From: an uncultured Clostridium sp. | GTDB taxonomy: Bacteria > Bacillota > Clostridia > TANB77 > CAG-508 | Direction of reading: 5' to 3' | Length of the DNA: 64,000 bases | Assembly (NCBI GenBank): GCA_947575605.1 | Contig: CANPNZ010000002.1 | Span: forward strand, 31,020 to 95,019 | Notes under the pieces: generated by a model | Seen by the model: only the letters and a program-made list of their open reading frames with translations | Told to the model about the DNA's origin: nothing | Databases searched by the model: none | Position numbers and translations under genes: made by a program | Shown: in pieces, positions 1 through 60,252 of the stretch | Layout of the letters: every line of letters begins with the position of its first letter | Numbering within the stretch: the stretch's first letter is position 1

Positions 1-70
1 GAAATGTGCAAGCGGTTATGGATGGCGAAATTGATGCTTTTATGGAAAGCTTTTTAAAAATGAAATTATA

Positions 71-312
71 ATAAGTTAACTCTAACACTTTATTAAATTA
101 TAAAAAATAAAACTATAAAAATTAAAAAAGGTGAATGGAAAATAATTGAACTAGAACTTTTTAATTTATTTTATGGAAATAGTTCACGCTTGACGTGAAA
201 GGGAGCCATAAAATAAATTTAAAAGTTCTGTGAAAATTAGTTTGACCGAACATTTTTTAATTTTTATAGTTTTATTTTCTATATTTGTTAAAATGATAAG
301 TATTAACTTATA
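71..312. repeat. Family A palindromic structured repeat (~245 nt), copy 1, with outward -35/-10-like TTGACC-17-TATAGT at 242-270
   Basis: About 80 % identical to 20045-20300. Terminal inverted repeats ataagttaa/ttaacttat and aaaactataaaaatt/aatttttatagtttt. Nested hairpins preserved between copies by compensatory base changes. Confidence 0.6.
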
Positions 313-395
313 ATCACAAAAGAGATTCTTGCATACAATATAGAGAGTAGATTTAAAATAAAATCAGCTCTCTATATTATTTTTACAAAAGGCGA

Positions 396-4501: not shown

Positions 4502-4862
4502 ACCAAGTCAAGTAATATACCAAAACTCCCCTCTTGTTGAAGTAAAAAATCACAGGAGAGGAGTTTTGGTACTATTCTAAATAATATTTTAAAGTTTCTC
4601 ATGGGAAACCAAATACGTGATATTATCTCAATAGGAGATGATATCATGAATTATTATAAAAAAAGTAAGAAGATATTTAAGGAAAAAATAAAAGAAAATA
4701 GAAATATTAGTAAAGTGGAATGGGATGAATTCGCTCAAGAAAACTCTTTATTTAGTGCTAATACCTTAATGTTTCATGTTGACGCTAAATCTTTTGAAAA
4801 TTTAAAAGAAAAACTTTCATAAAAATTAAAGAAAATGCAAATACTAAAGATGAGGGATTTTT

Positions 4863-5063
4863 ATGAGAGTAGAAATATTGATAAGGCAAAAGAGACAAGA
4901 AAAAGATTACACAATAGATAAATTAGCAGAACTTGCGAATATGTCTAAAGGACATTTAAGTAGAATAGAAAGAGGAGAAACAGAACCAACAATAAGCACT
5001 TTAGTAAGAGTGGCAATGGCATTAAAAGTTAAAGTAGAAGAATTATATAAAATACATTATTAA
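4863..5063 (+). CDS. XRE-family helix-turn-helix transcriptional regulator (Cro/CI-like, 66 aa)
   Basis: DKLAELANMSKGHLSRIERGETEPTISTLVRVAMAL is a typical HTH_3 signature. Confidence 0.75.
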   Translation: MRVEILIRQKRQEKDYTIDKLAELANMSKGHLSRIERGETEPTISTLVRVAMALKVKVEELYKIHY

Positions 5064-5404
5064 TTATATTTAATAGTGTATTTTTTATTTTATATAATTT
5101 GAAAGAAAGATATAAAATAAAAAATACAACATTGCACAAAATCAAAGTTTTGTGAAAAGAGAAATAGGATCAAAATAGAATTATACGAATATAGTCATAT
5201 TTCCTATATTAGCTACTCTCAAGCTTATTTTTAACAACAAACTTATTCATTACTAATAAAAACTCCTTAAAATTGATTCTGAAGCTTCGTTTATTTTAGT
5301 TTATACCAGGTTTTATTATTATCATAAATTATACATTATTTATATAAATTTTTATACAAATAATGTATAATTTTATCAAATTTCGCAAAATCCTTGTATT
5401 TCAA

Positions 5405-14661: not shown

Positions 14662-15654
14662 ATGGATACTATGATAAATCGAGAAGATAATCCAGAATTC
14701 GTAAATTCTTTTTTAGATTATTCTATTACTATTTTAAATAAATCACCCAATAGTATTAAAGAATACAATTATGATTTAAGTATGTTTTTAAGGTTTATAA
14801 AATTACATTTTCATATGACCGAAAAAACGGATTTAAAAGAAATTAAAATAGATGATATGACAATTGATACCATAAAGAAAATTACATTAGATGATATTCA
14901 TGCTTTTATTTCCTATTTAACTCGTGAGTATCATAGCAAAGCTACTACTAGAGCTAGAAAGGTTTCAACGATTCGAATCTTCTTTAAATATCTAAGTAGA
15001 AAAGCAAAATTAATTGATGTTAATCCAGCACAAGATTTAGAAACTCCTAAATTAGATAAAAGATTACCGAAATATTTATCTTTAGAAGATAGTAGAAAAC
15101 TACTTGCTATTACTTCTAATGAAGATAACAGAAATTGCGAAAGAGATTATGCTATTATTACTTTATTCTTGAATTGTGGTATGCGTCTTTCTGAATTAGT
15201 TGGTATTAATCTTCAAGATATTGATTTTGGAGAATGTAAATTAAATGTTATTGGTAAGGGTAACAAAGAAAGAACGATTTATTTGAATAGAGCTTGTATG
15301 AAAGCAATTGCTGATTATATGGAAGTACGACCAAAACAAGGTATTAAACATGATAGTAAATCTTCTGAAAAAGCACTTTTCTTGAGTGAAAGAAAAACTA
15401 GAATTAGTAATCGAACGGTTGAAAATATAGTTTCTAAACAATTACAATTAGCAGGTCTGGATACTAAAAAATATTCCGTTCATAAGCTAAGACATACGGC
15501 TGCTACTTTGATGTATCAATATGGACAAGTTGATATTCGAGCTCTTCAAGAGCTTTTAGGACATGAGAGTATTGCTACTACTGAAATATATACTCACGTT
15601 AGTAATGATCAAGTTCGTAACGCAGTAGAAAATAATCCATTGGCTAATTTATAA
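14662..15654 (+). CDS. tyrosine recombinase XerC/XerD family
   Basis: N-terminal SAM-like domain; C-terminal catalytic RHT...HESIATTEIYTHV with catalytic Tyr. Confidence 0.85.
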   Translation: MDTMINREDNPEFVNSFLDYSITILNKSPNSIKEYNYDLSMFLRFIKLHFHMTEKTDLKEIKIDDMTIDTIKKITLDDIHAFISYLTREYHSKATTRARKVSTIRIFFKYLSRKAKLIDVNPAQDLETPKLDKRLPKYLSLEDSRKLLAITSNEDNRNCERDYAIITLFLNCGMRLSELVGINLQDIDFGECKLNVIGKGNKERTIYLNRACMKAIADYMEVRPKQGIKHDSKSSEKALFLSERKTRISNRTVENIVSKQLQLAGLDTKKYSVHKLRHTAATLMYQYGQVDIRALQELLGHESIATTEIYTHVSNDQVRNAVENNPLANL

Positions 15655-18640: not shown

Positions 18641-20026
18641 TTGAAAAGAACAAAAAAATTTTTTATGAATGGAATTATCTTAACCATAACAGCTTTCTTT
18701 ATGAAAAGTATAGGTATGTTATTTAATCTATATATCTCTAATAAAATTGGTTCAGAAGCAGTTGGTGTATTTAGTTTAGTTATATCAGTTTATATCTTTG
18801 CCATTACCTTAGCTACCTCTGGATTAAGTCTTGCCTGTACATGTATTGTTTCAGAACAATTTGCCCAGAAAAGCTTTCTAAATGGATTAAAAGCAGTTAA
18901 AAGTTGTCTTTTCTTTTCCTTGTTATTAGGTTTAGGAAGTGGATTTCTTATTTTAATTTTTTCTAATACAATTTCTCAGAATTGGCTTACATCAATGGTA
19001 TCTTGTATTCCTATTTACTTGATTGCTGCTGGACTACCTTTTATTAGCATTTCTAGCGTATTAAACGGATACTTTTCAGCGGTAAGAAAAGCTTATAAAA
19101 GTGCATTTTCTCAAGTATTCGAACTACTTGTTAAAATTTTGGTAAGTCTTTTATTATTAAATTTTTACACCAATAGAAATGTAGAAACTATTTGTATTTG
19201 CTTGATTCTAGCGGATGTTATTTCTGAAATTGCTTCTTGTTGCTTATTATTTGCTTTATATAAAATAGATCGACGTAGATATAGTAATCGTTGTATTACG
19301 AATATAACCTTCAAAAAAAGAATTTTTAAAATTACAATTCCTGTTTCCATTACTTCCTATATTCGCTCTGGATTATCTATGTTAAAACAATTTCTAATTC
19401 CTAGTCGTTTAGTATTATTTGGATTACCTTATAGTATGGCTTTATCAGAATATGGAAAAATCAATGGAATGACTATATCTGTTCTTATGTTTCCGAATGT
19501 CTTTATTACGTCATTTAGTAATTTATTGATTCCTGAGTTTTCTAGTTTAATGGCGAAACAATATAAAAAGAGAATGATAGAGGTTTGTCAAAAAGTATTT
19601 TTGGTTACCTCTATATTCTCTATTGCTATTTCTGTTATATTCTTTTTGTTTGCCAATGAAATTAGTCTTATGGTATTTAAAAATTTAGAATGTGCTAAAT
19701 ACATCAAAATTCTTTCTCCCCTTGTTTTATTTATGTACCTAGATAATATTATAGATAGCATACTAAAAGGTCTAAATAAACAATTTGGAGTTATGTTTTG
19801 TAATATTTTAGATTTGATTTTGACAATTAGTATTTTATATTTTTTATTACCATCTTTTGGTTTGACTGGTTATCTTTTAGCTATTGTAGTTAGCGAAATG
19901 TTTAACTTTTGTATTAGCTTTTTTCAATTGTATCGAGCTATCGAATTTAAAATGAAATTTTGGTTAACTAGTTGTTGTCTATTTTTTCTTTTCTTAGCCA
20001 CATATCAAATTATAGAAATTATGTAA
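18641..20026 (+). CDS. MOP-superfamily flippase (SpoVB/MurJ-like polysaccharide biosynthesis protein)
   Basis: 14-TM Wzx/MurJ-like profile; N-terminus resembles stage V sporulation protein B. TTG start at 18641 with RBS AAAGGTGA (ORF track begins at 18614). Confidence 0.65.
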   Translation: MKRTKKFFMNGIILTITAFFMKSIGMLFNLYISNKIGSEAVGVFSLVISVYIFAITLATSGLSLACTCIVSEQFAQKSFLNGLKAVKSCLFFSLLLGLGSGFLILIFSNTISQNWLTSMVSCIPIYLIAAGLPFISISSVLNGYFSAVRKAYKSAFSQVFELLVKILVSLLLLNFYTNRNVETICICLILADVISEIASCCLLFALYKIDRRRYSNRCITNITFKKRIFKITIPVSITSYIRSGLSMLKQFLIPSRLVLFGLPYSMALSEYGKINGMTISVLMFPNVFITSFSNLLIPEFSSLMAKQYKKRMIEVCQKVFLVTSIFSIAISVIFFLFANEISLMVFKNLECAKYIKILSPLVLFMYLDNIIDSILKGLNKQFGVMFCNILDLILTISILYFLLPSFGLTGYLLAIVVSEMFNFCISFFQLYRAIEFKMKFWLTSCCLFFLFLATYQIIEIM

Positions 20027-20044: not shown

Positions 20045-20300
20045 CTTTATATGCTTAATACCCGACACTTTTTTGAAATGTGTAACAAAATATAAAAATT
20101 AGAAAAAAAGCGAATGGAAAGTAATTTATACTAGAACTTCTTAATTAATTTTATGGAAAATGTTCGCACTTTATGTGTGAGAGCTGCCATAAAATTAATT
20201 TAGAAGTTATGTGAAAATTAGCTTGACCGAGCGTTTTGATAATTTTTATATTTTATTACACTATAAAATTAAAAACTGTCGGGTATTAAGCTTTATATGG
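20045..20300. repeat. Family A palindromic structured repeat, copy 2, with promoter-like TTGACC-17-TTATAT
   Basis: Terminal inverted repeats gcttaatacccgacac (20052-20067) and gtcgggtattaagc (20278-20291). Internal hairpins are conserved with copy 1 via compensatory substitutions. Confidence 0.65.
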
Positions 20301-20363
20301 CTAAGAAATCTTAAATAGACATCTATCTCAAATCCGACAAAAATGTCGGAAAAGAAACGTCCC

Positions 20364-20943
20364 TTAAAAACGATGATTGACTTCGTTCCAATTTACAATA
20401 TTCCAAAAAGCATTAATATAATCAGGTCTTTTGGTTTGATATTGTAAATAATAAGAATGTTCCCACATATCCAAAACTAATAATGGTTTACATCCCCACA
20501 AAGTAAGATCTTGATGTTTCTCACATTGTAGTATTTCAAGTTTGTTCCACTTAGAAACCCAAACCAATAAACACCAACCGGGAAGCCTCTACCATTTTAC
20601 TTGCTTCGTTAAATTGATTTTTAAAAGCTGCATAACTTCCAAAATCTTTTGTAATTTGCTCCATTAATGGCAAACTTGGTTCGGTTGGAACCGCTGGTCC
20701 CATATTCATAAAAAATAATTCATGTAAAATAGCTCCTGAACCAAAAAAACTCAAATTCTTTTCATAACATTTTATATTGGCAAAATCATTATTTTTTCTA
20801 GCTTGTTGCAATTTTTCTTCTGTCTGATTGGTATTATCTACATATCCTTTATATAATACATTATAATGTAAATCTAAGGTTTCTTTTGAATAGTATGGTT
20901 CTAACGCATCTAATGGATAGGGCAATTCTATCATTTTTAACAT
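20364..20943 (-). pseudogene. sodA: Fe/Mn superoxide dismutase, apparent frameshift in a C/G run near 20575
   Basis: N-terminal HYNVLYKGYV... and C-terminal LDMWEHSYYLQYQTKRPDYINAFWNIVNW lie in different frames. Confidence 0.75.
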
Positions 20944-24654: not shown

Positions 24655-24850
24655 ACTATTGTTTATTAGAAAATATTGCCAATCCAAGATAATTTATATT
24701 ATTTTTGCAACTACTTTGTAAGCGATCAAACGAGCTATGCGAGTGCGATTGGAGCAATCGACGAACATCTCTTTAATTTTGGAGATTGCGACGCACAAAG
24801 TGTAAAAAAATACTATAAATTATCTTGGAGGCAGATTACTAAAAAACATA
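24655..24850. repeat. Family C palindromic repeat (core aagcgatcaaacgagctatgcgagtgcgattggagcaatcgac)
   Basis: Core about 90 % identical to 41003-41065; flanked by imperfect inverted arms. Confidence 0.65.
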
Positions 24851-36480: not shown

Positions 36481-38031
36481 ATGCAAGAGTTAAACTATAA
36501 CTTTCCCCCTACTTATTTTAAAGTAGGAATTTACACAAGACTTTCAAGAGAAGATGAAAAAGACAAAGAATCTGAAAGTATTGATACTCAAAAAAAGTTA
36601 TTAACAAACTATATAAAAAGTCAAGGTTGGACTTTATTTAAAATATATGTAGATGATGGATTTACTGGTACAAATTTTAATAGACCAGATTTTAAAAATT
36701 TAATAAATGATATTGAACTTGGTAATGTAAATGTAGTCATTACAAAGGATTTATCAAGACTTGGCAGAGATTATATTGAAACAGGTTATTATTTAGAAAA
36801 ATACTTTCCATTAAAAAATGTAAGATATATTGCTTTAAATGATGGAATTGATACATTTGATAATAACAACACCAATAATGATATGACACCATTTAAATCT
36901 GTTTTTAATGATATGTATGCAAAAGATATCTCAAAAAAAGTTCGTTCCAGTTTGCTAACAAAAGCATCAAGTGGACGAAATATCAAATCTTTTTTACCTT
37001 ATGGCTATAAAAAAGATGAAAAGGACAAAAATATCATTTTAATAGATTATGAAGTTTCTCCTATTGTTCAAAAAATATTTGAAATGTATTATGCAGGAAA
37101 TAATAAAACTGAAATATGTAGATATCTAAATAAAAATAAAATACTAACACCACTTGCCTATAAAAGAAAAACTACAAACTATTATAATCCAAATAACAAA
37201 ACAAATTTATGGAGTACAACCATGATTTCTAAAATTCTTAGAGATAGAATTTATACAGGAGATTTAGTACAACATAAATATAGCAAATTGAATTACAAAA
37301 CTAAAAAAATTATTGATGTACCAAAACAGCAACATATTATTATTGAAAATAATCACAAACCAATCATTGATAAAAATATTTTTAATAGTGTTCAAATTAT
37401 GCTTGATAAAAAATCAAATGAATGGAATTATACCGCTTCTTCTGCTCATTTGTTACAAGGGCTAGTTCTATGCAAAAAGTGTAAATCAAAAATAACCTAT
37501 AATAAAAATCATGGAAAATATTTTAGATGTGTGTGTTCTTCTTATAAAAGAAATGGTAGTAAATTTTGCTCTAATATCCATTTAAGAGAAGATACTTTAA
37601 TTAGTAGTGTAATTACTAGTTTGAAAGAAAACATTTCTGATTTTCTAAAATACGATGAATTAGAATATATCTGTCCTAATACACAAATAGATAATAAAAA
37701 ATTAGATTATTTGAATTCTAAAATAACTGAAAAGGATGATTTGATCCAGTCTTTATATGAAGATAAAGTAAAAGGAATTATCACAGAAGATTTATTTATC
37801 AAACTTTCTAAACAATATGAAGTAGATAAAAAAACTTTACTAAATCTAGTTCAAAAAGAAAAAGAGATTAATAAGAATACAATAAAAAAAGAAGATTTAA
37901 TCTGTAATGTGAAAGAATTATTAGATTTTAATGAAAATAACCTAGATAGAAATTTGCTTTTAAAATTAATTGATAAAATAGAAATAGATGATGACAATAT
38001 TGAAATTTATTATAAATTTAAAGCCATTTAA
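36481..38031 (+). CDS. large serine recombinase (resolvase domain + recombinase domain + zinc ribbon)
   Basis: YTRLSREDE catalytic Ser region; LSRLGRD; Cys-rich zinc-ribbon CKKCKS...CVCSSY; C-terminal coiled coil. Confidence 0.9.
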   Translation: MQELNYNFPPTYFKVGIYTRLSREDEKDKESESIDTQKKLLTNYIKSQGWTLFKIYVDDGFTGTNFNRPDFKNLINDIELGNVNVVITKDLSRLGRDYIETGYYLEKYFPLKNVRYIALNDGIDTFDNNNTNNDMTPFKSVFNDMYAKDISKKVRSSLLTKASSGRNIKSFLPYGYKKDEKDKNIILIDYEVSPIVQKIFEMYYAGNNKTEICRYLNKNKILTPLAYKRKTTNYYNPNNKTNLWSTTMISKILRDRIYTGDLVQHKYSKLNYKTKKIIDVPKQQHIIIENNHKPIIDKNIFNSVQIMLDKKSNEWNYTASSAHLLQGLVLCKKCKSKITYNKNHGKYFRCVCSSYKRNGSKFCSNIHLREDTLISSVITSLKENISDFLKYDELEYICPNTQIDNKKLDYLNSKITEKDDLIQSLYEDKVKGIITEDLFIKLSKQYEVDKKTLLNLVQKEKEINKNTIKKEDLICNVKELLDFNENNLDRNLLLKLIDKIEIDDDNIEIYYKFKAI

Positions 38032-40939: not shown

Positions 40940-41150
40940 TAGTTGCTTTCTTTTAAGTTTCGACTTTTTGCAAGTAAGGTTGTACTATATAATTTTTGAA
41001 ACTACTTAAGTAAGCGACTAAACGAGCTATGCGAGTGCGATTGGAGCAACCGACAGATAAAATCTAATTTTATAGGTTGCTTTCGCACTAAGTGGAAAAA
41101 ATTATATAGTACAACCTTACTTGCAAAAAGTCGAAACTTAAGTTGCTTCT
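40940..41150. repeat. Family C palindromic repeat with 42-bp perfect inverted arms (aagtttcgactttttgcaagtaaggttgtactatataatttt)
   Basis: Arms at 40955-40996 and 41097-41138 are exact reverse complements. Core shared with 24718-24780; truncated copy at 44795-44860. Confidence 0.8.
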
Positions 41151-44723: not shown

Positions 44724-44951
44724 TTCTATTTCTCCTCTTTTCTCTTATATTATGTTTCTATTTTAATCCTTTTTTTAATAATTCGCAATCCTATTTTTTC
44801 AAGTTTCGACTTTTTGTAAGTAAAGGCTTTCCTATATAATTTTTTAAACTAGTCAGGTAAGTGACCAGACAATCTTTTTATTCAGAGGAAATCTTCCTAG
44901 TAAAAAAAGAAATAGATAAAACTTATCTACCTCTTTTTTTACATTCAAAAT

Positions 44952-49355: not shown

Positions 49356-49378
49356 GTACACATCTTTGGGTGTCATTT

Positions 49379-50959
49379 TTAAATCATTTTTTCAATATCT
49401 GTTTTTAATTCAAATTTTATCATTTTATCTCTATTTATATAAATTTTATCTATGAGCATTTGCAAAATCATTCTATTAGGTACTTCTGATTTTATAATTT
49501 CATCAAAATATTCAATTGAATTTCTTAACTTATTTCCTTTTTCTTCTAAATGCTTTTTTTCATCTTCTTGTAATAATGCTTTTAAATAAGAAATATTTTT
49601 TACTTTTTCCTTTTCAAGTTCTTTATATGTATTTTCAATAATCTTTCTTGCTATTTCATTATTAGCAGATGCCAGCTCTTTAATTTTTTGATTAACTAAC
49701 ATTTTATATTCTTCATTTAAGATGTTTATATTGTTTCGTAACTTAATTTTATTATCTTCTTTCTTATTTTGTTTTATTTCAATCTTAATATTTTGTATTT
49801 CTTCTAAATATTGCTTTTTAGTAAATTTTAAAAATTCTTTTAAATGTATTAAAATATCTTTTTCTTTAACCTCGTGGCAGTGACAAGCTTTTGTACTAAA
49901 TTGTCTATATCTTGAACAATCATATCCCTTTTCTTTTACTTTTCTCCTAATTACTATACCTGACATTCCTGAACCACAATCTTCACACTGACACATTCCT
50001 GAAAAATAATAGTCTCTTTTTGTATTTGTTCCTGAAGTATTTTGTTCATTCTTTTTCTTTCTTATTTCTTGTGCTAACTCGAATATTTCCTTTGAAATAA
50101 TTGGCTCGTGATGATTTTCAAATACAAAATGTTCTTCTTTTGGTAGCTTTACAGCTTTTCCTCTAATATTTACTGTTCGCTTTTTATGAGTAATTAAAGT
50201 ACCTGTATAAATCTCATTTTTTAATATATTACTTACCATATCTTTTGTCCAATCTTCTTGAACTTTGTGTCTATAAACTCTACCTTTTTCTAAATGTTTC
50301 ATTCTATAATATTCAGATGGTGTTGGATAATTATATTTTGTATTTAATATTTCGCTAATCTTTTGAAATCCATATCCATTTTCAACATATAATTTAAATA
50401 TAACTTCAATAACTGGTTTTAGTTCGTCTATGATATAGAGCATAGGTATATCGTCTTTAAAAACTTTTTCATAGCCATAGTAATTTCCCATAATTAGTCT
50501 TGCGTTTTTTTGCTTAGAATACATATGATCTCTTGTTTTTCTTGAGCAATCTTTTACATATCTTTCATTAAACCAAGTAGTTATTCCAATCGTATCATCT
50601 CTGTCATTTAAAACATCATAAGTTCCGCCCATTTCTGAAACTAGAATTAGATTTTTTTGCATATTTTTAAATTCATCTATAAGCACTAAAACTCTTCCAT
50701 TATTTCTGCCAATTCTTGATAAATCTTTTGCTATAACTACATCAATTTCTCCTCCTTTTACTTTCTCCATCATTTTTGAAAATTCAGGTCTATTAAAGGT
50801 ATATCCCGAAACATTGTCATCTATGTAGAAGTCTTCATCTTTGATAATCCAATTACAAGCCACTGCATAATCTTTAATAATTCTTTTTTGTTCCTCTATG
50901 CTTGAATAATTTTCTTTATCTTCATCTCTAGACAATCTACAATATCCTACAACTGTCAT
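49379..50959 (-). CDS. large serine recombinase
   Basis: GYCRLSRDEDK catalytic Ser; DLSRIGRN; zinc ribbon CQCEDCGS...CSRYRQ; long coiled-coil C-terminus; AAAGGAGG RBS. Confidence 0.9.
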   Translation of the reverse strand: MTVVGYCRLSRDEDKENYSSIEEQKRIIKDYAVACNWIIKDEDFYIDDNVSGYTFNRPEFSKMMEKVKGGEIDVVIAKDLSRIGRNNGRVLVLIDEFKNMQKNLILVSEMGGTYDVLNDRDDTIGITTWFNERYVKDCSRKTRDHMYSKQKNARLIMGNYYGYEKVFKDDIPMLYIIDELKPVIEVIFKLYVENGYGFQKISEILNTKYNYPTPSEYYRMKHLEKGRVYRHKVQEDWTKDMVSNILKNEIYTGTLITHKKRTVNIRGKAVKLPKEEHFVFENHHEPIISKEIFELAQEIRKKKNEQNTSGTNTKRDYYFSGMCQCEDCGSGMSGIVIRRKVKEKGYDCSRYRQFSTKACHCHEVKEKDILIHLKEFLKFTKKQYLEEIQNIKIEIKQNKKEDNKIKLRNNINILNEEYKMLVNQKIKELASANNEIARKIIENTYKELEKEKVKNISYLKALLQEDEKKHLEEKGNKLRNSIEYFDEIIKSEVPNRMILQMLIDKIYINRDKMIKFELKTDIEKMI

Positions 50960-50996
50960 TTTTCCTCCTTTTGCCTGATATTGCTCTTGGTCTATA

Positions 50997-51230
50997 TTAG
51001 CATACATTGTCCGATAACTCCACTTGTTTCGCAATTATTTTTTTGAGAATTTCGGGATAATTCTTTGTTCCTGTTACAAATATTCCAATTTTATACTTTT
51101 GTTCTTCATATTTTTCAATTGTTTCTTTAGTTTCTTGTTGTTCTAATTCTTCTTTAGTTAGATAAATTTGCATATATTTGGTATTAGAGATTTCATTAGA
51201 AGTAATTTGCATATTATTTAACTCCTTCAT
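50997..51230 (-). CDS. small conserved protein upstream of the recombinase (paralog at 56528-56761; possible directionality/regulatory factor)
   Basis: 77 aa, about 75 % identical between the two elements, co-oriented and immediately upstream of each recombinase. Confidence 0.45.
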   Translation of the reverse strand: MKELNNMQITSNEISNTKYMQIYLTKEELEQQETKETIEKYEEQKYKIGIFVTGTKNYPEILKKIIAKQVELSDNVC

Positions 51231-52065
51231 AATATTTCTCCCTAAATATTATGCAAAAAGAAACATATAAATATCTCCTTTTGTCTTAAAAAATTACTTG
51301 ATGAAATCTAATACACAACTTTCTTGATTACTATCAATAAATCACCTCCTGTTTTTAACATTAATAAATTTCTTTCTAATAATAGGAGTACCATTATTAA
51401 GCATAAATGTTGTATTTTATAAAAGAATTATTTCTATATAATAAAAATTTCTATATAATAAAAACTCCTTTATTAATATAAATCCAATATTTATGAATAA
51501 TGTTGTAAAATTATATATTTTTTATTTCTAATAAATAAGAACACTTTTTATTTTTAGAATGGGGAATTTTCTGAATTAAATATCTATCAAAACAAAAGAA
51601 ATGATAATCATGTATAAAAACACAATTATCATTTCTTTTTAGCTATAACATTGTATATGTGCCAATGTTTCATTTTTCCTAATCCAGTTTTTCCATCTTT
51701 TTCTAATTCATTAAAGTGTATTATTTCAAAAGCTAACACTTGCTCTTTTGTTAGAAATACCATTTGTTCTTTAATTTTTGTCCATGAATCATTTAATAAA
51801 AAAAGTTTCCAACAAAGTATCCGACCTTTTAAAATACTATCATTTATCTTATTCCAAAATTCATTAAAATAATCTTTACTACAAAAGGGAATACTAAAAT
51901 TAGAACTAATAGATTATTTTTTTCTAATTTAATATCTTCAAAGTTTTGAAGATTAAATCTAATAATATCAATTCCTTTCAATTTCTTAACAAGTATTATA
52001 GCATACAATTTTATAAAAAGTAATAGGAGAATGAAAATTTTATTTTTCCACTCTCCTATCGTGCC

Positions 52066-53100
52066 TTAAAACTTTTTCCAGCACTGAGGATCTTTTGAAT
52101 AAAAGTTTCCAGTTAAACATTTGGCTACCGAAGGACATCCTCTGCAAAAGTTCTTGATTTCACATTTAGAACAATGTTCAAATTTATCATACTGACGGTA
52201 TTTGTCCATTTCTTCACCATTGAAGATGTCATAGAAAGATTGCTCTGGAACTTTTCCTACAGGTGTTTCACTTCTTCTACAAGCATAAACTGTTCCATCT
52301 GCCAAAGTTGTTATGTGGGTAATTCCACAATGACATCCATCAAGAATCAGGTCATTTGGATTGTCAATCTCGTTAGGATTAAATAACCCTTTTTCATACA
52401 GATACAATTTCCAAAGATGGTCTTTCAAGGCAAACCTTGTGTCACATTCCTGATTTTGCATGTACTTTTCCCACATCTTATCCAGAAAATCTCTGTATTC
52501 TTCAGGTTCAACCATCAAATCGAAATCTTCAGGGCTAGGGCAATATCTTGCAAAACTAAAATTGCTAACTTTGTGTTTTACTACGATGTCCACTAATTCA
52601 GGAATTTCTGCAATATTTGTCTTTGAAACTGTTGTCATGATAGCAGTTTTGATTTTGCTACCCTCAAAATACTTTAAAGCATCCAAAGTAGCATCAAAAG
52701 AACCAGGCTTACGAATAAAATCGTGAGTTTCTCTCAAACCGTCCAATGACATTTGAAAGTTTATACAACCTAAATCTTCCAACTGCTTCACAACATCATA
52801 GTCCAAGTGGAACGGATTACCTAAAAGTCCAAAATGAACTTTATGTTCTTTGAGTATCTCCAGAAAATCCCATATTTTTTCGTAAAGTAAAGGATCTCCT
52901 CCTGTAATTACGAGGAAAGGGTCTCTGTTCAGCCTGTCACAACTTTGAATAAAATCTTTCAAAATTGCTTTCAATGTGCCTAAATCAAGTTCAAGACCAC
53001 ATTTTTTGTCTTTACCTTCATAGATGTAGCAATGCTTACACCGCTGATCACATCTATCAGTGATATGCCATTGCATACTGAATTTTGTTCTTTCTGCCAT
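52066..53100 (-). CDS. radical SAM/SPASM-domain peptide-modifying enzyme
   Basis: CDQRCKHCY (CxxxCxxC) cluster; C-terminal Cys-rich SPASM region (CHCG...CRRSE...CSKCEIKNFCRGCP). The ORF track starts upstream at 53181. Confidence 0.85.
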   Translation of the reverse strand: MAERTKFSMQWHITDRCDQRCKHCYIYEGKDKKCGLELDLGTLKAILKDFIQSCDRLNRDPFLVITGGDPLLYEKIWDFLEILKEHKVHFGLLGNPFHLDYDVVKQLEDLGCINFQMSLDGLRETHDFIRKPGSFDATLDALKYFEGSKIKTAIMTTVSKTNIAEIPELVDIVVKHKVSNFSFARYCPSPEDFDLMVEPEEYRDFLDKMWEKYMQNQECDTRFALKDHLWKLYLYEKGLFNPNEIDNPNDLILDGCHCGITHITTLADGTVYACRRSETPVGKVPEQSFYDIFNGEEMDKYRQYDKFEHCSKCEIKNFCRGCPSVAKCLTGNFYSKDPQCWKKF

Positions 53101-53204
53101 TATAAATCCTCCTTTTAGGGCAAGAGACACCTCTAAAAGAGATGCCTCTGCTTTGTTGAAACTAATGTGTGCTGTCGACAATACACATTATTCGTTCATC
53201 TGTA

Positions 53205-53423
53205 TTAACTACAAGATATCCTGCAAGATGTGCAAGCTCCACAGGAACAACTACTGCATTCTGTGTGACCGCTTGAGCAGCTACAAGAACAAACTGCAGC
53301 AACTACTTTGACTCCAGCTCCAACTAATTTAGCCTTTGCAGACTTCATAAAGTTCTGAGCAGAGTTTTTCCCAATGTAGTTTACACTGGGATTCCAGTAA
53401 TTTGTCCGTGCCATTCTGTTCAT
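53205..53423 (-). CDS. Cys-rich RiPP precursor peptide candidate (72 aa; 9 Cys in the last 31 residues)
   Basis: Leader MNRMARTNYWNPSVNYIGKNSAQNFMKSAKAKLVGAGVKVVAAV, then core CSCSCSSGHTECSSCSCGACTSCRISCS. RBS AAAGGAGAA. Immediately upstream of the rSAM/SPASM gene. Confidence 0.6.
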   Translation of the reverse strand: MNRMARTNYWNPSVNYIGKNSAQNFMKSAKAKLVGAGVKVVAAVCSCSCSSGHTECSSCSCGACTSCRISCS

Positions 53424-53508
53424 AGTGCATTCTCCTTTCCATAAAATTCCAACGGGTTGCTTAGAGCAATATTTACTGCCCTAAATAATACATAAAGATG
53501 TATTATAC

Positions 53509-53733
53509 TTACATAATATCATGTTTGGAATATTTTGTCAATAGTTTGTATTCTTTTACTTGACCATATGATAGATTACTCATTCCTATATTCAATTCTT
53601 TATCTATTCCATTTCTAATAATATCTGCTTTATATCTTCCTTGAGCTTTTGCAATATTCTTTATCATTTTCTTTTTATATCTTGGTATTCTTATTACCAT
53701 TGTTACTAATTCTTCATCTTTATTCTTTTTCAA
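53509..53733 (-). CDS. ribbon-helix-helix (CopG/Arc-like) DNA-binding protein
   Basis: VIRIPRYKKKMIKNIAKAQGRYKADIIRNGIDKEL fits the beta-alpha-alpha RHH pattern. Confidence 0.4.
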   Translation of the reverse strand: MKKNKDEELVTMVIRIPRYKKKMIKNIAKAQGRYKADIIRNGIDKELNIGMSNLSYGQVKEYKLLTKYSKHDIM

Positions 53734-53942
53734 ATTTTACCTTCATTCTTTTTTACTTTTTCATATCAAAATTACCTTAAAGTAATTTTGCAGGATCAGG
53801 GCGACGTCTCGAACCCCCATAACTGCCTAAAAGCGTAGCTTTTATCAGTATACACTTTCATTATAGCGATGTCACATAGACATCTCGTTTTTTGGTTAGA
53901 AAAAACCAATATAAATCCACAAATTTATATTGGTTTTCACTT

Positions 53943-54248
53943 TTATTTCAATTCTTCTTTTAATTTTATTCCATCTTTTAGTCCTGCAAAATAATATTTC
54001 TTATGAAAATAATAACTTTCAAAATCAATTGTTTCTACATAATCTTTTATCAACTTTTCAATGCTATCTTTTAGCCAATTAAGATTATATGGAATTTTTT
54101 CCAATTCTTTATTTAAACAATCAGATTTTTTAATTTTATTCGCTTTATCCTGACACATAAACTTCTTGTCTTCATCTGTAATAAAAGCCACATCTTCTTC
54201 TCTTGCTTCAAATATTGTTTCTAGCATATTGATTTTTTCTTTCTCCAT
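53943..54248 (-). CDS. hypothetical protein
   Basis: ORF only. Confidence 0.3.
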   Translation of the reverse strand: MEKEKINMLETIFEAREEDVAFITDEDKKFMCQDKANKIKKSDCLNKELEKIPYNLNWLKDSIEKLIKDYVETIDFESYYFHKKYYFAGLKDGIKLKEELK

Positions 54249-54311
54249 TTAACATCACCTCCTATTGGTGTGTGATGTTAACTCTTCTTGAAATTAATGT
54301 CAAGATAATTC

Positions 54312-54734
54312 TTAAAAGTTATTCGCATATAAACTTGTCCAATCAGAATCACTATAATCTCTGTCACTTTTATATTTATTTTTATGATTACTTTTTATCT
54401 CTTTAACATTTGTATTAATAGGTTTAGTATCAAATTGTTTATATGTATCAACATTTTTGTATATAGGTGTAATCTTCCTTAGAGCTATTTCTTTCGAATT
54501 TTCTTTATAAATCATTTCTACTTTTATATATCCTTTTTTCTTAAGTGAATTAATAATTCTTGAAGATTGTATTTTTGTAATACTTAATAATTCACTTATA
54601 TATAAATTTGACATAATACATTCTTTTTCTTTGCTTAAATATAAAATCATAGAATAAACTATTTTTTCTTTATCATTTAATTTTATATCCATTAATATTT
54701 CATAAGGTATCCATACTCCTTTAAATTCTTTCAA
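54312..54734 (-). CDS. winged-HTH DNA-binding protein (putative element replication/maintenance protein; paralog at 59812-60252)
   Basis: ISELLSITKIQSSRIINSLKKKGYI HTH; about 85 % identical paralog in E2. Confidence 0.5.
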   Translation of the reverse strand: MKEFKGVWIPYEILMDIKLNDKEKIVYSMILYLSKEKECIMSNLYISELLSITKIQSSRIINSLKKKGYIKVEMIYKENSKEIALRKITPIYKNVDTYKQFDTKPINTNVKEIKSNHKNKYKSDRDYSDSDWTSLYANNF

Positions 54735-54904
54735 TACTTTATTTTCTTTCCAATCAATCGCTCGACGATCGATTTCTAAGCCATTAAATTTAAAATTCGA
54801 TTAACTTATCAATATCGAAAATTATAAGCAATATCAGGCATTTTATTTATTCATCCAAAGATTTAGACTTTACGGGTGTAAAGTCTTACAATGTGGGGAG
54901 TTTT

Positions 54905-56484
54905 TTATATTAGTTTTTCAACATCTACTTTTAAATCAAATTTTACAGTTTTATCACTATAAATCCATATTTTATCTATTATATTTTCTAAAACATATCT
55001 GCTTGGTATTTCTTTTGCAATAATTTCATCGAAATACTCTATTGTATTTTTTAGCTTTTTTATTTTTTCTTTTGAAATTTCTTGTTCTTCTTTGTTTAGT
55101 ATTTCTTGTAATTTTTCTATTTTGTTTGTTTTATCCAGTTCTAATTCTTTATATGTATTTTCTATCATTTGTTTTTGATATTCATTTGTACTTGATGCTA
55201 AATCTTTTATTTTTTGGTTTAATAAAACTTTATATTCTGCCTTTAAAGTTTCAAGTTCATATTTAATCTTTTCTTTATTAGTTTGCATATTAGTAGTTTT
55301 TGTCTCAATTTCTATTTTAGTTATTTCATCAATATATTTTTGTCTTGTAAATTTTAGAAACTCCTTTAAATGAATAATCATATCAGTTTCTTTTATTTCA
55401 TGACATTTACATCTTGTTTTCCCATAAGTTCTATACTGGGAACATTCATATCCTTTTTGCTTTTGTTTTCGATTCATGGTTATACCGACTTACTCCAAAT
55501 CCACAATCACCACATTTAACTAATCCAGAAAAAGCATAGTTTCTTTTTCTTGTCCCGACAAGTACTTTTTGAATTTGCTTTTCTTTTTCTAATTTCTTGT
55601 GCTAATTCAAATGTTTCTTTTGAAATGATTGATTCATGATGATTTTCAAATACAAAATGTTCTTCTTCTGGAAGTTTAATTGCTCTGCCTCGTATAGAAA
55701 CAGTTTTCTTTTTATGAGTTCTTAAGTTTCCTGTGTATACATCATTATTTAAAATATTACTTATCATATAGGTAGACCATAATTTTTGTACAGGATGTTT
55801 GTATATTCTTCCTCTTTCTAAATGCTTTTGTTGATAATATACAGAAGGAGTAGGGTAGTCATATTTGCTATTCAAAATATCACAAATTTTCTTTCTACCT
55901 AAACCATCTTCAATATATAGTTTATATATTAATTCTATAACAGGTCGTATTTCTTCATCTACATATAACTTTGTAACATCTTCTGTATCTTTTACATAAC
56001 CATAATAATTTCCCATTATTAATCTTCCCGATTTTTGTTTAGAATACATATGATCTCTTGTCTTTCTTGAACAGTCTTTTACATATCTTTCGTTAAACCA
56101 TGTTGTAATTCCAATTGTATCATCTCTGTCATTTAAAACATCATAAGTTCCTCCCATTTCTGAAACTAGAATTAAATTTTTTTGCATATTTTTGAATTCA
56201 TCAATAAGTACTAAAACTTTTCCATTGTTTCTTCCAATTCTTGATAAATCTTTTGCTATTACAACATCAATTTTTCCTCCTTTTACTTTTTCAATCATTT
56301 TTGAAAATTCAGGTCTATTAAAGGTATATCCCGAAACATTGTCATCTATGTAGAAGTCTTTGTCTTCGATAATCCAATTACGAGAAATAGCATAATCTTT
56401 TATAATTCTTTTTTGCTCTTCAATACTTGCATAATTTTCTTTATCTTCATCTCTAGACAGTCTACAATATCCTACAATGGTCAT
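54905..56484 (-). pseudogene. large serine recombinase paralog, disrupted by at least 2 frameshifts in the zinc-ribbon region (55480-55570)
   Basis: N-terminal 340 aa about 80 % identical to the 49379-50959 product. Middle segment RNYAFSGLVKCGDCGFG is readable only in a third frame. The C-terminal 190 aa continue in a third ORF. Confidence 0.8.
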
Positions 56485-56527
56485 TTTTTCCTCCTCACTT
56501 GACCTGATATTGCCTATGTGCTGTATG

Positions 56528-56761
56528 TTAGCATACATTGTCTGTTAATTCCACCTGTTTCACAATAATTCTTTCAAGAATTTCGGGATAATTCTCTTTT
56601 CCTGATATAAAAATAGCTATATAATACTTTTCTTTTTTATATTTTTCAATTTTTGCTTTTGTTTCTTGTTTTTTCAGTTCTTCTTCCGTTAAATAAATTT
56701 GCATATATTTGGTATTAGAGATTTCATTAGAAGTAATTTGCATTCTATTTAACTCCTTCAT
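56528..56761 (-). CDS. small conserved protein upstream of recombinase (paralog of 50997-51230)
   Basis: Paralogy and position. Confidence 0.45.
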   Translation of the reverse strand: MKELNRMQITSNEISNTKYMQIYLTEEELKKQETKAKIEKYKKEKYYIAIFISGKENYPEILERIIVKQVELTDNVC

Positions 56762-57054
56762 AATATTTCTCTCTAAATATTATGCAAAAAGAAATACCAA
56801 TTATTTCTTTTTGTCTAAAAATTACTTTAGTAAAATTCTAATACTCTAATTTTTATTATTTTTCAAAAGCATCCCTCCTCTATAATATAAGAACACAAAA
56901 ATTTTATTAAATGGGTATTTTTAATAAAATCTTTCATATATATAAACACATTTTTTTCTATTAAATGTTGCATTTTTTGAAAAATTTATATTTTTTAATA
57001 TTTTATTCTTTTTATAAATTTAGTAATAAATGAAGATTTAACATATAAGAACAA

Positions 57055-57150
57055 AAGGGGCATGATTAATTTTTTTGACCTTTTAGATTCTTTACATGTC
57101 CCGTTTTTGTTCGCCCGCGAAAATTGCTAAGCAATTTTCTGTGGAATGCT
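57055..57150. repeat. Family D hairpin repeat, copy 2
   Basis: Matches the reverse complement of 15680-15780. Confidence 0.6.
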
Positions 57151-57235
57151 TTATATTCTAGGAAGTTCGGAGAATTTTCCTAGAATATAAAAAAGTAACT
57201 ATTGATATAGCTACTTATATAATCTTATTATTCAA

Positions 57236-57559
57236 TTATTCGTCTTTTAAATATTTTTCCCAATCCATAAAAGCATGACCGATTCTTAATACTAATACTT
57301 TAGATTTTTCTTCATCAACTATATAAAATATTATATAATTTCTTACATTGATTTTTCTAATATTTTTATGACCTGTCAAATCTTCATTTAAAATAAGCAT
57401 ACTTCCTGCTACATTTTCTAAATCTTTCAACTTTTGTTTAAATAAGAGTTTGTATTTGTCTGCTATAATATCTCCTGCTAGATTATATCGAAGATATGAA
57501 ATAATATTTTCTAAATCTTGTTCGGCAGTTTCTGAAATTTCCACTATATATTTTTTCAT
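57236..57559 (-). CDS. RelE/ParE-family type II toxin
   Basis: ParE/RelE-like length and motifs (YIIFYIVDEEKSKVLVLRIGH). Confidence 0.7.
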   Translation of the reverse strand: MKKYIVEISETAEQDLENIISYLRYNLAGDIIADKYKLLFKQKLKDLENVAGSMLILNEDLTGHKNIRKINVRNYIIFYIVDEEKSKVLVLRIGHAFMDWEKYLKDE

Positions 57560-57577
57560 AACATTTGCTCCAGTCTT

Positions 57578-57835
57578 TTACATATTATCTATTTTAGAAA
57601 AAACTTCATCTAAAGAATAGACTTTATTTTCTTTTATATCATCTAGTCCTTTTTGTAACTTTTCTTTTAAGTCTTTTTTACTTTTTATTGTTATACTCTC
57701 TGGAGCTTCTGTATCTATATATGATATTTTTAAATATTCAATAAAATTAATGACTTGATTCGTAAGTTCTTCTGGTAATGTTTCAATTTCATTATATAAT
57801 TTTTGTTTTTCTATAGACATATTGATTACCTCCAT
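57578..57835 (-). CDS. antitoxin partner of the ParE/RelE-like toxin
   Basis: Small acidic protein immediately upstream, 18-nt gap. Confidence 0.55.
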   Translation of the reverse strand: MEVINMSIEKQKLYNEIETLPEELTNQVINFIEYLKISYIDTEAPESITIKSKKDLKEKLQKGLDDIKENKVYSLDEVFSKIDNM

Positions 57836-58049
57836 AATAAATTTATACTATTATTATAGCATTTTTCCTTTCAAAAATCTATGAATTTGAGAAAATATTT
57901 TATATCTTAAAAAATAAAATATTTTTTGTTTTATCCTTTATAAAAAAAGTAACTATTTTAAATAAAACCATCTAAACAATAACTTGAGTATCTAATTGCT
58001 TTCAAGTCTTTTTATGTATCTTATTAAAAATTTATTATATTATGAAAAA

Positions 58050-58397
58050 TTACATTTGCAAATTTAATTCAAATCTTTCTATAAATCCTATCCATTCTCC
58101 TTTTTCATTCTTGACCCCTTGCATATAAACTCTTTGATTCCTAGCAGTTACGCATACAAACATTTCTTTTCCATTGCTTTTAATTCCCTCATAACCTTTT
58201 TTTATTCTTTCAATAGATTTTTCACTACTATGGCATTTAAATAGACTTTTTCCTATTAAATTTTTATATCCTCTTTCTTCATAATAATGGTATTGTGCAT
58301 TTTTATTCATAAATCTAATAATATAGTCATTATCTACAAAAACAATAGGATATGGATAACTATTCAAAATTCCTTTTAACATTTCTAATTCTTCCAT
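58050..58397 (-). CDS. PAS-domain protein
   Basis: PAS-like core (ILNSYPYPIVFVDNDYIIRFMNKNA...). Confidence 0.45.
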   Translation of the reverse strand: MEELEMLKGILNSYPYPIVFVDNDYIIRFMNKNAQYHYYEERGYKNLIGKSLFKCHSSEKSIERIKKGYEGIKSNGKEMFVCVTARNQRVYMQGVKNEKGEWIGFIERFELNLQM

Positions 58398-58529
58398 AAA
58401 TATTTCCTCCCTTAATCATTTATAATTATTATATTATTTTTTCATAGAAAACAAGCGAAAACAATATATTTTAAAAAAAGTTGTAATTTAATTACCCATA
58501 ATATAATAATGTTTTTTTCATCTAAAAAG

Positions 58530-59402
58530 TTAATTTAATTTGAATTGACTAGCCAATTTATCGATTGTAATGCCACCTCTATTTTTCCAATCAATTTCAA
58601 TACTGTTAAATCTTTTATCTTGGAAATTATTAAGTAGCTCTATCTCTTTATTCTCTAATGTAAAATCTAAAGATTGTAAATTACTATCTATATTTTGTAT
58701 TGTATTAGTTTTTATGATTGTATTTAAACCTTTCTCTTTTATCATCCAATTCAATAAAATTTGATTTTGTGTCCTATTATATTTATTTGCTAATTCTACT
58801 AAAAAAGGATAATTTCTTTTAGCTATATTATTTCTTCTTAATGCTTGATAACATACAAATTTAATATCATTAGATTTACAAAAATCTATTAAACCTATAT
58901 TTTCGTAATATTTACATTCTAAATTATACACACCTTCAAAACTATATAGTTTAAAATATTTTTGGATTTCTTTCAATTCTTCAAAAGAAGTATTGCTTGC
59001 AGATATGTATCTAATTTTTCCTTTTTCTACTAACTTGCTTATTTCTTCATATGTTTCTAGTAATGGTATCTTTAACGCATAAGATATATGAACTTGCAAA
59101 GCATCTACATAATCAATATTCATTCTCTTTAAATATTCATCTAATTGTTTTTCTACATCTTCTTTTTTCTCTATGTAAGGTTCTAAATGACAAGTAAGAA
59201 ATATATTGTCTTTACTCACTTGTTTAAAAAAGTCACCTAGAAAGTCTACAACATTACAATTATCGTATAAAAGACTTGTACTCATAAAATTTTGCCCTTT
59301 ATTAACAGAATATAATAATGATTGTAAAGTCTTATCTTTGTTTTCTAAATCAAGTTTATATGTACCTATTCCAATTGGATTAATTTTATTTAATTCTATC
59401 AT
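58530..59402 (-). CDS. aldo/keto reductase family oxidoreductase
   Basis: AKR motifs IGIGTY, DALQVH, GKIRYISASN, ILLNWMIKEKG. Confidence 0.75.
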   Translation of the reverse strand: MIELNKINPIGIGTYKLDLENKDKTLQSLLYSVNKGQNFMSTSLLYDNCNVVDFLGDFFKQVSKDNIFLTCHLEPYIEKKEDVEKQLDEYLKRMNIDYVDALQVHISYALKIPLLETYEEISKLVEKGKIRYISASNTSFEELKEIQKYFKLYSFEGVYNLECKYYENIGLIDFCKSNDIKFVCYQALRRNNIAKRNYPFLVELANKYNRTQNQILLNWMIKEKGLNTIIKTNTIQNIDSNLQSLDFTLENKEIELLNNFQDKRFNSIEIDWKNRGGITIDKLASQFKLN

Positions 59403-59811
59403 AATTTCTCCTCAATTTTACTCTTAGTATTTTCTCTTAAAACCATTATACCATATGTTTCTTTATAAAACTACTATTTGATTATAATTTTTTCTGCCTT
59501 ACCAATAATCAAAATTGCTAAAAAGCAATACAAAATGCATACTGAGACTGTAAAAAAATCAAAGATTTTAACAGCCTCAGCATTTTGCAGGATCAGGGCG
59601 ACGTCTCGAACCCACACAACTACCTAAAAACGTGGTTTTTAGCGGTATACGCTTTCATTATGGCGATGTCAAATAGATGTCTCGTTTTTTGTCAGAAAAA
59701 AGCCAATATAAATTGATAAATCTATATTGGTCTTCACTTTTATTTCAATTCTTCTAATTTTATTCCAACTTTTAGTCTTTCAAAATAATATTTTTGATGT
59801 CAAGATAATTC

Positions 59812-60252
59812 TTAAAAATTATTCGCATATAAACTTGTCCAATCAAAATTACTATAATCTCTGTCACTTTTATATCTGTAACCATTTTTATTATATATCT
59901 TATTATTATTTATTATTTCTTTAACATTTGTGTTAATAGGGTTAGTATCAATTTGTTTATGGGTATTAACATTTTTGTATATAGGTGTAATCTTTCTTAA
60001 GGCTATTTCTTTTGAATTTTCTTTATAAGTCATTTCTACTTTTATATATCCCTTTTTCTTAAGTGAATTAATAATTCTTGAAGATTGTATTTTTGTAATA
60101 TTTAATAATTCGCTTATATATGAATTTGACATGATACATTCTTTTTCTTTGCTCAGATATAAAATCATTGAATAAACAATTTTTTCTTTATCATTTAATT
60201 TTGTATTTATTAATACTTCATAAGGTATCCATACTCCTTTAAATTCTTTCAA
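59812..60252 (-). CDS. winged-HTH DNA-binding protein (paralog of 54312-54734)
   Basis: Paralogy. Confidence 0.5.
   Translation of the reverse strand: MKEFKGVWIPYEVLINTKLNDKEKIVYSMILYLSKEKECIMSNSYISELLNITKIQSSRIINSLKKKGYIKVEMTYKENSKEIALRKITPIYKNVNTHKQIDTNPINTNVKEIINNNKIYNKNGYRYKSDRDYSNFDWTSLYANNF

Follow-up and report, generated by a model that had tools for sequence, protein, structure and literature searches.

Family A, a probable palindromic MITE of uncultured Clostridia whose centre occurs in both orientations

Two palindromic copies and their surroundings

The window analysed here is a stretch of 64,000 nucleotides from an uncultured Clostridium, with a base composition of 27.3% GC, and it holds two homologous palindromic copies, ~235-239 bp long, of a repeat that we call family A. 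Copy 1 lies between a release-factor gene and an aspartate kinase gene; copy 2 lies, as an initial annotation of this DNA had stated, between two convergent genes, a SpoVB-like gene (Polysacc_synt/MatE) and sodA. The same annotation had proposed a pair of ~245-nt palindromes at 71-312 and 20045-20300. Both are real, but their limits are corrected here to 73-307 and 20053-20291, with 7-bp direct repeats flanking each (Table 1). The ~80% identity that it gave for the two copies is close to our own values of 83% (mean column identity in a MAFFT alignment) and 77% over 229 nt (blastn), and a 19-base word that is common to both copies is absent elsewhere in the window, where 0.03 such words are expected.

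Table 1. Positions, in the window, of the two family A copies, their parts and the large serine recombinases
Feature	Position	Strand	Remarks
Copy 1: left flanking direct repeat TTATAAT (target-site duplication)	66..72	.	Read from window sequence
Copy 1	73..307	.	235 bp, 20% GC; begins directly 3' of the release-factor gene stop codon (69-71)
Copy 1: left arm of the 22-bp inverted repeat bounding the centre (ATAAAACTATAAAAATTAAAAAA-type)	108..129	.	Window vs L032, direct: 22/22
Copy 1: central 123 bp, inverted in sister strain	130..252	.	Inverted in L032/L036 and at least 7 other assemblies
Copy 1: innermost hairpin	152..230	.	Arms 152-176 / 206-230
Copy 1: promoter-like TTGACC-17-TATAGT	242..270	+	Predicted; -35 in the invertible centre, -10 in the inverted repeat
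Copy 1: right arm of the inverted repeat bounding the centre	253..275	.	Has -10-like TATAGT; window vs L032 22/23
Copy 1: right flanking direct repeat TTATAAT	308..314	.	Read from window sequence
Copy 2: left target-site duplication TTTATAT	20046..20052	.	Single TTTATAT in L056 empty site
Copy 2	20053..20291	.	239 bp, 26% GC; missing from L056
Copy 2: left TIR (GCTTAATACCCGACACTTTTT)	20053..20073	.	Pairs with 20271-20291: 21 nt, 95% complementary
Copy 2: inner inverted repeat, left arm	20080..20107	.	Pairs with 20234-20261: 28 nt, 89% complementary
Copy 2: innermost hairpin	20135..20208	.	Arms 20135-20156 / 20187-20208: 22 nt, 95% complementary; apical stem-loop 20163-20181
Copy 2: promoter-like TTGACC-18-TATATT	20223..20252	+	Predicted; points outward, towards the sodA 3' end
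Copy 2: inner inverted repeat, right arm	20234..20261	.	Includes -10-like hexamer
Copy 2: right TIR	20271..20291	.	21 nt, 95% complementary to 20053-20073
Copy 2: right target-site duplication TTTATAT	20292..20298	.	Single TTTATAT in L056 empty site
Large serine recombinase (duplication unit)	49379-51034		
Large serine recombinase (duplication unit)	55516-56538		
Large serine recombinase (third)	36481-38031		

The terminal inverted repeats (TIRs) of family A are 15-21 bp long. At copy 2 the sequence GCTTAATACCCGACA stands at both ends in inverted orientation, and the termini of copy 1 are homologous to these, though more degenerate; the two copies had been credited with different terminal repeats, which are actually diverged homologues (GCTTAATACCCGACAC versus AAGTTAACTCTAACAC). 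Copy 1 forms a long palindrome with arms at 68-176 and 206-314 (75% complementarity) and copy 2 a palindrome of nested arm pairs with 89-95% complementarity, the inner repeat of which (20080-20107) is, in our alignment of the family (A5), the homologue of the repeat that bounds an inversion in copy 1. Neither copy has coding capacity: there are only incidental open reading frames of 24-35 aa, with the frame broken by an indel between the copies, and no reading frame is conserved from one copy to the other. A small protein from a GTG reading frame common to the copies ('MKISLTE...') was accordingly considered and rejected, its frame being lost from one copy to the other.

Both copies contain the TTGACC promoter-like site reported for them, although in copy 2 it is to be read as TTGACC-18-TATATT, and the motif is conserved across all copies of the family. 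Such sites are common in this DNA of 27% GC and occur throughout the AT-rich sequence at about twice the frequency of shuffles (8 and 6 found versus ~3.4). In the window the predicted site of copy 1 is directed towards the aspartate kinase gene. A terminator-like hairpin with a T-run lies at 337-385, just upstream of the start of that gene, and because every relative retains it, whether the element is there or not (L046, L048), it is native to the locus. Judged from its sequence, this hairpin would stop transcripts leaving copy 1, and since it stands between the promoter-like site and the gene, a regulatory effect of copy 1 on aspartate kinase is doubtful.

The window also contains a second intergenic repeat family, ~100-130 nt long, at 24690-24830, 40960-41110 and in part at 44810-44880 (...CTATATAATTTTTGAAACTACTTAAGTAAGCGAC.AAACGAGCTATGCGAGTGCGATTGGAGCAA.CGAC...), which is GC-richer than the DNA around it and is matched by no Rfam family at the gathering threshold. 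A tandem duplication of ~5.5 kb, at 49376-60182 and 70-90% identical, has in each unit a large serine recombinase and an adjoining peroxiredoxin gene. The duplicated units and the third large serine recombinase are probably integrated mobile elements, and all three recombinases probably belong to elements other than family A. Besides these, the only recombinase in the window is an Xer-family tyrosine recombinase (14662-15654), located 4.4 kb from copy 2, which at 235 bits, against a XerC cut-off of 335, scores below the XerC/XerD equivalog cut-offs.

Occupied and empty insertion sites

The SpoVB-like gene beside copy 2 has many relatives, of 70-98% identity, which have its C-terminus in common. 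In one of the contigs that carry them, L056, the flanking gene is 98% identical and a clean empty site is found, reading ...ctttgcTTTATATggctaag..., the contig sequence at the site of copy 2 being ...ctttgcTTTATATggctaagaaatc... When positions 20053-20298 (the element and one TTTATAT) are taken out of the window, the remainder equals L056 at 351/355 bases with no gap. Removal of this segment restores the L056 sequence and copy 2 is therefore a 239-bp insertion with a 7-bp target duplication. The element is also missing from L021 (91%) and L027 (84% identity), where a short, ordinary bidirectional terminator hairpin lies between the SpoVB-like gene and sodA.

On the far side of this site, sodA itself (20364-20943, minus strand) is split into overlapping reading frames for an N-terminal part of 130 aa and a C-terminal part of 67 aa, and in L021 (11398-11969) and L027 (10975-11542) only the N-terminal Sod_Fe_N part was called. 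From the sequences, this looks like a frameshift or a pseudogene that is conserved in the clade.

The empty site bears directly on a model in which snap-back or template-switch replication lengthens the palindrome by duplicating its flanks in inverted orientation, which would explain why each copy appears to have outer repeats of its own. Part of the 3' end of the SpoVB-like gene (19976-20004) does pair with 20294-20321, and in a third copy, described below, extra arms of 85 nt form one continuous palindrome with the element. The outer repeat at copy 2, however, already exists in the empty site of L056, and 174/2000 shuffles score as high, so that growth of this kind was rejected for copy 2; moreover, copies 1 and 2 have homologous outer ends. 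For the family as a whole we regard the idea as very improbable.

At the site of copy 1, three contigs with aspartate kinases 96-98% identical to that of the window (L046 (GCA_948709255.1), L047 and L052) have a 36-nt mini-palindrome, AACTTAATGCCTATTAAAAAATGTTAAGTATTAAGT, which has both ends of the element but lacks the ~200-bp interior (L046 9874-9909) and is flanked by TATAAT repeats, as at copy 1. It is either a minimal form of the element or what is left of a longer copy. Most simply it would be an internal-deletion remnant, because the ends belong to the inserted DNA at copy 2 and dispersed short palindromes are lacking. Insertion of family A into dispersed short REP-like hairpins was rejected on the same two observations, as there are none in the window or in the fetched loci and the outer ends are inserted DNA. 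In L048-L050, where the aspartate kinase is 89% identical, the site of copy 1 has no trace of the element and is occupied by an ordinary terminator.

A scan of species-representative genomes revealed a third copy, L002, on contig CANONT010000006.1 of another uncultured Clostridium MAG, where it separates addB from an 8-oxoguanine glycosylase gene. In its core it shares 87-92% identity with copy 1, the cores of all three loci being 77-92% identical, and a second assembly, L054, is identical to L002. In the 91% relative L053 the whole L002 palindrome, of ~415 nt, is missing, with a single GGAAC in place of AGGGAC...AGGAAC; the flanking repeats at L002 are thus imperfect (AGGGAC / AGGAAC). Each of the three insertions is, then, either absent or represented by no more than a terminal remnant in relatives with flanking proteins of 91-98% identity, and on these comparisons recent movement is shown within a clade of uncultured low-GC Clostridia.

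The L002 locus has a peculiarity of its own. Its family A part is enclosed, exactly in the middle, by extra arms of ~85 nt, which are GC-richer and 95% complementary (4663-4770 and 5004-5086, and likewise in L054), so that arms and core make up one continuous palindrome of ~415 nt; these arms were not found elsewhere among the fetched loci. The 7-mers flanking the family A part are reverse complements of each other rather than direct repeats, for which ordinary nested transposition does not account. With this copy placed exactly in the middle of a second palindrome, and no direct target duplication beside it, a further possibility is that the element inserts preferentially at the midpoints of palindromes or hairpins already present.

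Beyond these three insertion sites, two of them in the 64 kb of the window and the third in another species, the searches gave little. The GTDB scan returned L002 and three chance matches, the scan of JGI metagenomes 12 matches that were all due to chance, and viral contigs no exact-word matches; blastn and an nhmmer profile detected no further copies in ~400 kb of related fetched loci. An origin from a plasmid single-strand origin or a phage origin was rejected, there being no blastn similarity in PLSDB or INPHARED records and no words shared with viral contigs. Short-read contigs from several samples do, on the other hand, terminate within the element or at its edge. One pair, L005/L006, ends exactly at the end of the first 31-mer that lies fully inside the element, which would fit further identical copies elsewhere in that genome.

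Orientation of the centre and pairing of the arms

In L032/L036 (ERZ14651022), which come from another sample and have an identical Rho protein, copy 1 is at the same site with its centre inverted. The central 123 bp of the window match those of L032 at 118/123 positions as the reverse complement and at 75/123 in direct orientation, with flanks that agree at 70/71 and 103/106. At sites that distinguish the two arms, the arms of L032 agree in 21 cases with the window arm of the same side, and in 5 with that of the other side. Two independent insertions in opposite orientations are rejected on these counts, and we therefore have a single insertion with a flipped centre. The comparison of the two strains thereby shows that the arms within a copy recombine, the 123-bp centre having been flipped through exchange inside the 22-bp perfect inverted repeat. 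Because TATAGT is present in each repeat arm of copy 1, an intact TTGACC-17-TATAGT is rebuilt in either orientation, and in L032 the predicted site is directed towards the release-factor gene.

The orientation of the centre follows the haplotype of single-nucleotide differences in the flanks and outer arms without exception in ten assemblies, of which at least 8 are type B and 2 type A, and the inverted centres have diverged at 5/123 positions. Linkage and divergence together point to one inversion fixed between lineages, and not to demonstrated switching; on the sequences compared, a single old event is indicated.

These observations also decide how much weight is to be given to the view that family A is a dedicated inverton, in which frequent flipping of the 123-bp centre by a site-specific recombinase would make transcription of the neighbouring genes phase-variable, the MITE-like features being secondary. 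Several things speak for it: both orientations occur at one locus, perfect 22-bp inverted repeats bound the segment, the promoter-like site is intact in both states, its -35 being within the segment that flips and a -10 in each arm, and the Xer-family recombinase, with its score below the XerC/XerD cut-offs, is encoded close to copy 2. In addition, the contig L042 begins where the 31-mers first become specific to one junction, as would fit the presence of two junction types in the sample. Frequent switching is, however, at odds with the perfect linkage of orientation to haplotype and with centres that have diverged since they were flipped. The recombinase is syntenic in relatives that have no element; aspartate kinase, the sodA 3' end and addB are not typical phase-variable targets; and a terminator-like hairpin follows the promoter-like site of copy 1. 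Inversion between short inverted repeats, finally, can come about with no dedicated enzyme. We consider a dedicated inverton distinctly unlikely.

A related proposal keeps the element mobile and has the centre flipped at an appreciable rate, by the Xer-like host recombinase or by recombination between the arms, with the result that each insertion would bring a reversible promoter with it. An outward promoter that switches direction is possible because the invertible centre holds the -35 and each repeat arm a -10 (TATAnT), the direction being set by the orientation of the centre, as for Correia elements. That the centre flips often enough for such a mobile promoter switch to operate seems unlikely to us.

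Each copy is predicted to fold as a single long hairpin, with RNA minimum free energies of -73.4 (copy 1) and -96.4 kcal/mol (copy 2) and z-scores of -10.6 and -13.0; over the family sequences examined the z-scores run from -10 to -15. In an alignment of four related sequences (A5), 95.5% of cells are paired and 11/84 consensus pairs have compensated double changes, whereas column shuffles give 5.5 +/- 1.5, with 11 never reached in 500, and slid registers give 0-3. The compensated changes first noticed in the inner hairpin are among these (A5 columns 94/157, U-A to C-G, and 101/150, U-A to A-U), while the covariation described for the apical hairpin proved weak, amounting to one double change and, for the rest, two wobble pairs.

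The initial annotation had drawn from these changes the conclusion that selection acts on an RNA or single-stranded DNA hairpin and that the repeat is not a decaying MITE. It was right in that the palindrome is maintained and not decaying, as the excess of double changes over shuffles indicates. A hairpin in which selection preserves the pairing, be it a structured non-coding RNA, a cis-acting RNA or a single-stranded DNA, would agree with those double changes and with the great stability of the fold. It would agree also with the G.U cells on the + strand, which outnumber A.C cells by 16 to 5 and hint weakly at a single-stranded + strand form, and with the orientation of the element, whose + strand has the same sense as the upstream gene at all three loci, so that it is probably co-transcribed. 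Half of the G.U cells, however, come from two invariant pairs, and the four sequences that provide the covariation are not independent of one another. The folding energies of the + and - strands (-67.7/-70.4, -89.2/-80.1, -58.0/-63.2 and -74.0/-74.1 kcal/mol for four sequences) favour neither strand consistently. At the gathering threshold Rfam finds only a tRNA in the whole window, and for the two copies scans by E-value yielded no match, or else sub-threshold ones to plant miRNA precursors, which are hairpin look-alikes.

What decides against the RNA hairpin as an alternative to a MITE is the behaviour of the element as DNA: it is a discrete insertion with TIRs and a 7-bp target-site duplication, it is missing from near-identical relatives, it lies in three unrelated genomic contexts, and its centre is found in both orientations with the flanks unchanged. 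A DNA palindrome that recombines, or that is constrained by transposition, gives the same covariation, and maintenance of the palindrome at the level of DNA would, for this reason, explain the arm covariation better than a selected RNA; the latter we hold to be rather improbable.

Family A as a MITE and its known counterparts

Family A is, with a probability that we put at roughly 80%, a non-autonomous and almost fully palindromic MITE of ~235-239 bp. Five of the features by which a MITE is recognised were found: a size under ~500 bp, the absence of coding sequence, TIRs, a target duplication and a presence/absence polymorphism. The targets TTTATAT and TTATAAT are AT-rich 7-bp sequences that were duplicated on insertion. 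A transposase encoded elsewhere in the genome would mobilise the element in trans. No cognate transposase or full-length IS with matching ends was found in the sequences examined, and the window has no DDE transposase; adjacency to a transposase is not a defining property of MITEs, which are mobilised in trans. The complementarity of the arms, compensated changes included, would be kept up at the DNA level through recombination or gene conversion between arms, through selection of source elements for their competence in transposition, or through both, and selection on RNA would be unnecessary.

Few MITEs have, to our knowledge, been described in Clostridia, to which family A adds one that is well documented: its empty site is clean, its target was duplicated, and both a deletion remnant and an inversion variant are known. 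It also illustrates that compensated changes in a palindromic repeat do not, by themselves, prove a functional RNA. The element places a predicted outward promoter-like site beside housekeeping genes, in a direction that differs by strain. Its practical consequences are modest: it breaks short-read assemblies of gut or environmental Clostridia and can be used as a strain marker.

Family A resembles invertons, such as the RecV-dependent switches of Clostridioides difficile and the fin sites of Bacteroides, in having inverted repeats of ~20-30 bp around a 100-300-bp segment with promoter elements that is found in both orientations. Unlike family A, those are fixed chromosomal sites that a dedicated recombinase flips frequently. 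In family A the segment lies inside a mobile element and keeps one orientation throughout each strain lineage in all assemblies examined, and no recombinase is tied to it. A literature search for elements of Clostridia that are MITE and inverton at once found nothing specific.

We know of no description of an inversion of the centre of bcr1, the group A bcr repeat (~155 bp) of the Bacillus cereus group. In other respects bcr1 is a close parallel, as a MITE-like element of a Firmicute that is present or absent between close strains, as summarised in the literature (PMC3184786, citing Okstad 2004, Klevan 2007, Kristoffersen 2011). According to the same summary, 5-bp direct repeats flank bcr1 and compensatory changes preserve its structure (PMC3184786); compared by this published description, the two have in common short AT-rich terminal direct repeats, a stable predicted structure and compensatory changes. 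As summarised there, bcr1 differs from family A in being shorter, in the 5-bp length of its direct repeats and in a two-stem, cruciform-like fold instead of one long hairpin.

The differences from the Correia elements of Neisseria (CREE / nemis, ~100-200 bp) lie elsewhere. Family A is unrelated to them in sequence and has a Firmicute, not a Proteobacterium, as its host. The target duplication of Correia elements is the dinucleotide TA, that of family A an AT-rich sequence of 7 bp. Correia elements are present in >100 copies per Neisseria genome, whereas three insertions of family A are known.

MITEs in general are AT-rich, favour AT-rich intergenic DNA, give stable hairpin transcripts and carry sigma-70-like promoters; for Correia elements, which have such promoters, the interior has been reported to invert and a role in phase variation has been suggested (PMC10969869; PMC3184786). 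Like these elements, family A is small, AT-rich and nearly fully palindromic, has TIRs and a target duplication, would form long hairpins if transcribed, carries outward sigma-70-like promoters, which in family A are putative, and has an interior that was inverted in one lineage. Because published descriptions match each behaviour observed, we file family A as what our analysis suggests it is, a new MITE family within a known kind of element, which behaves like the Correia elements of Neisseria.
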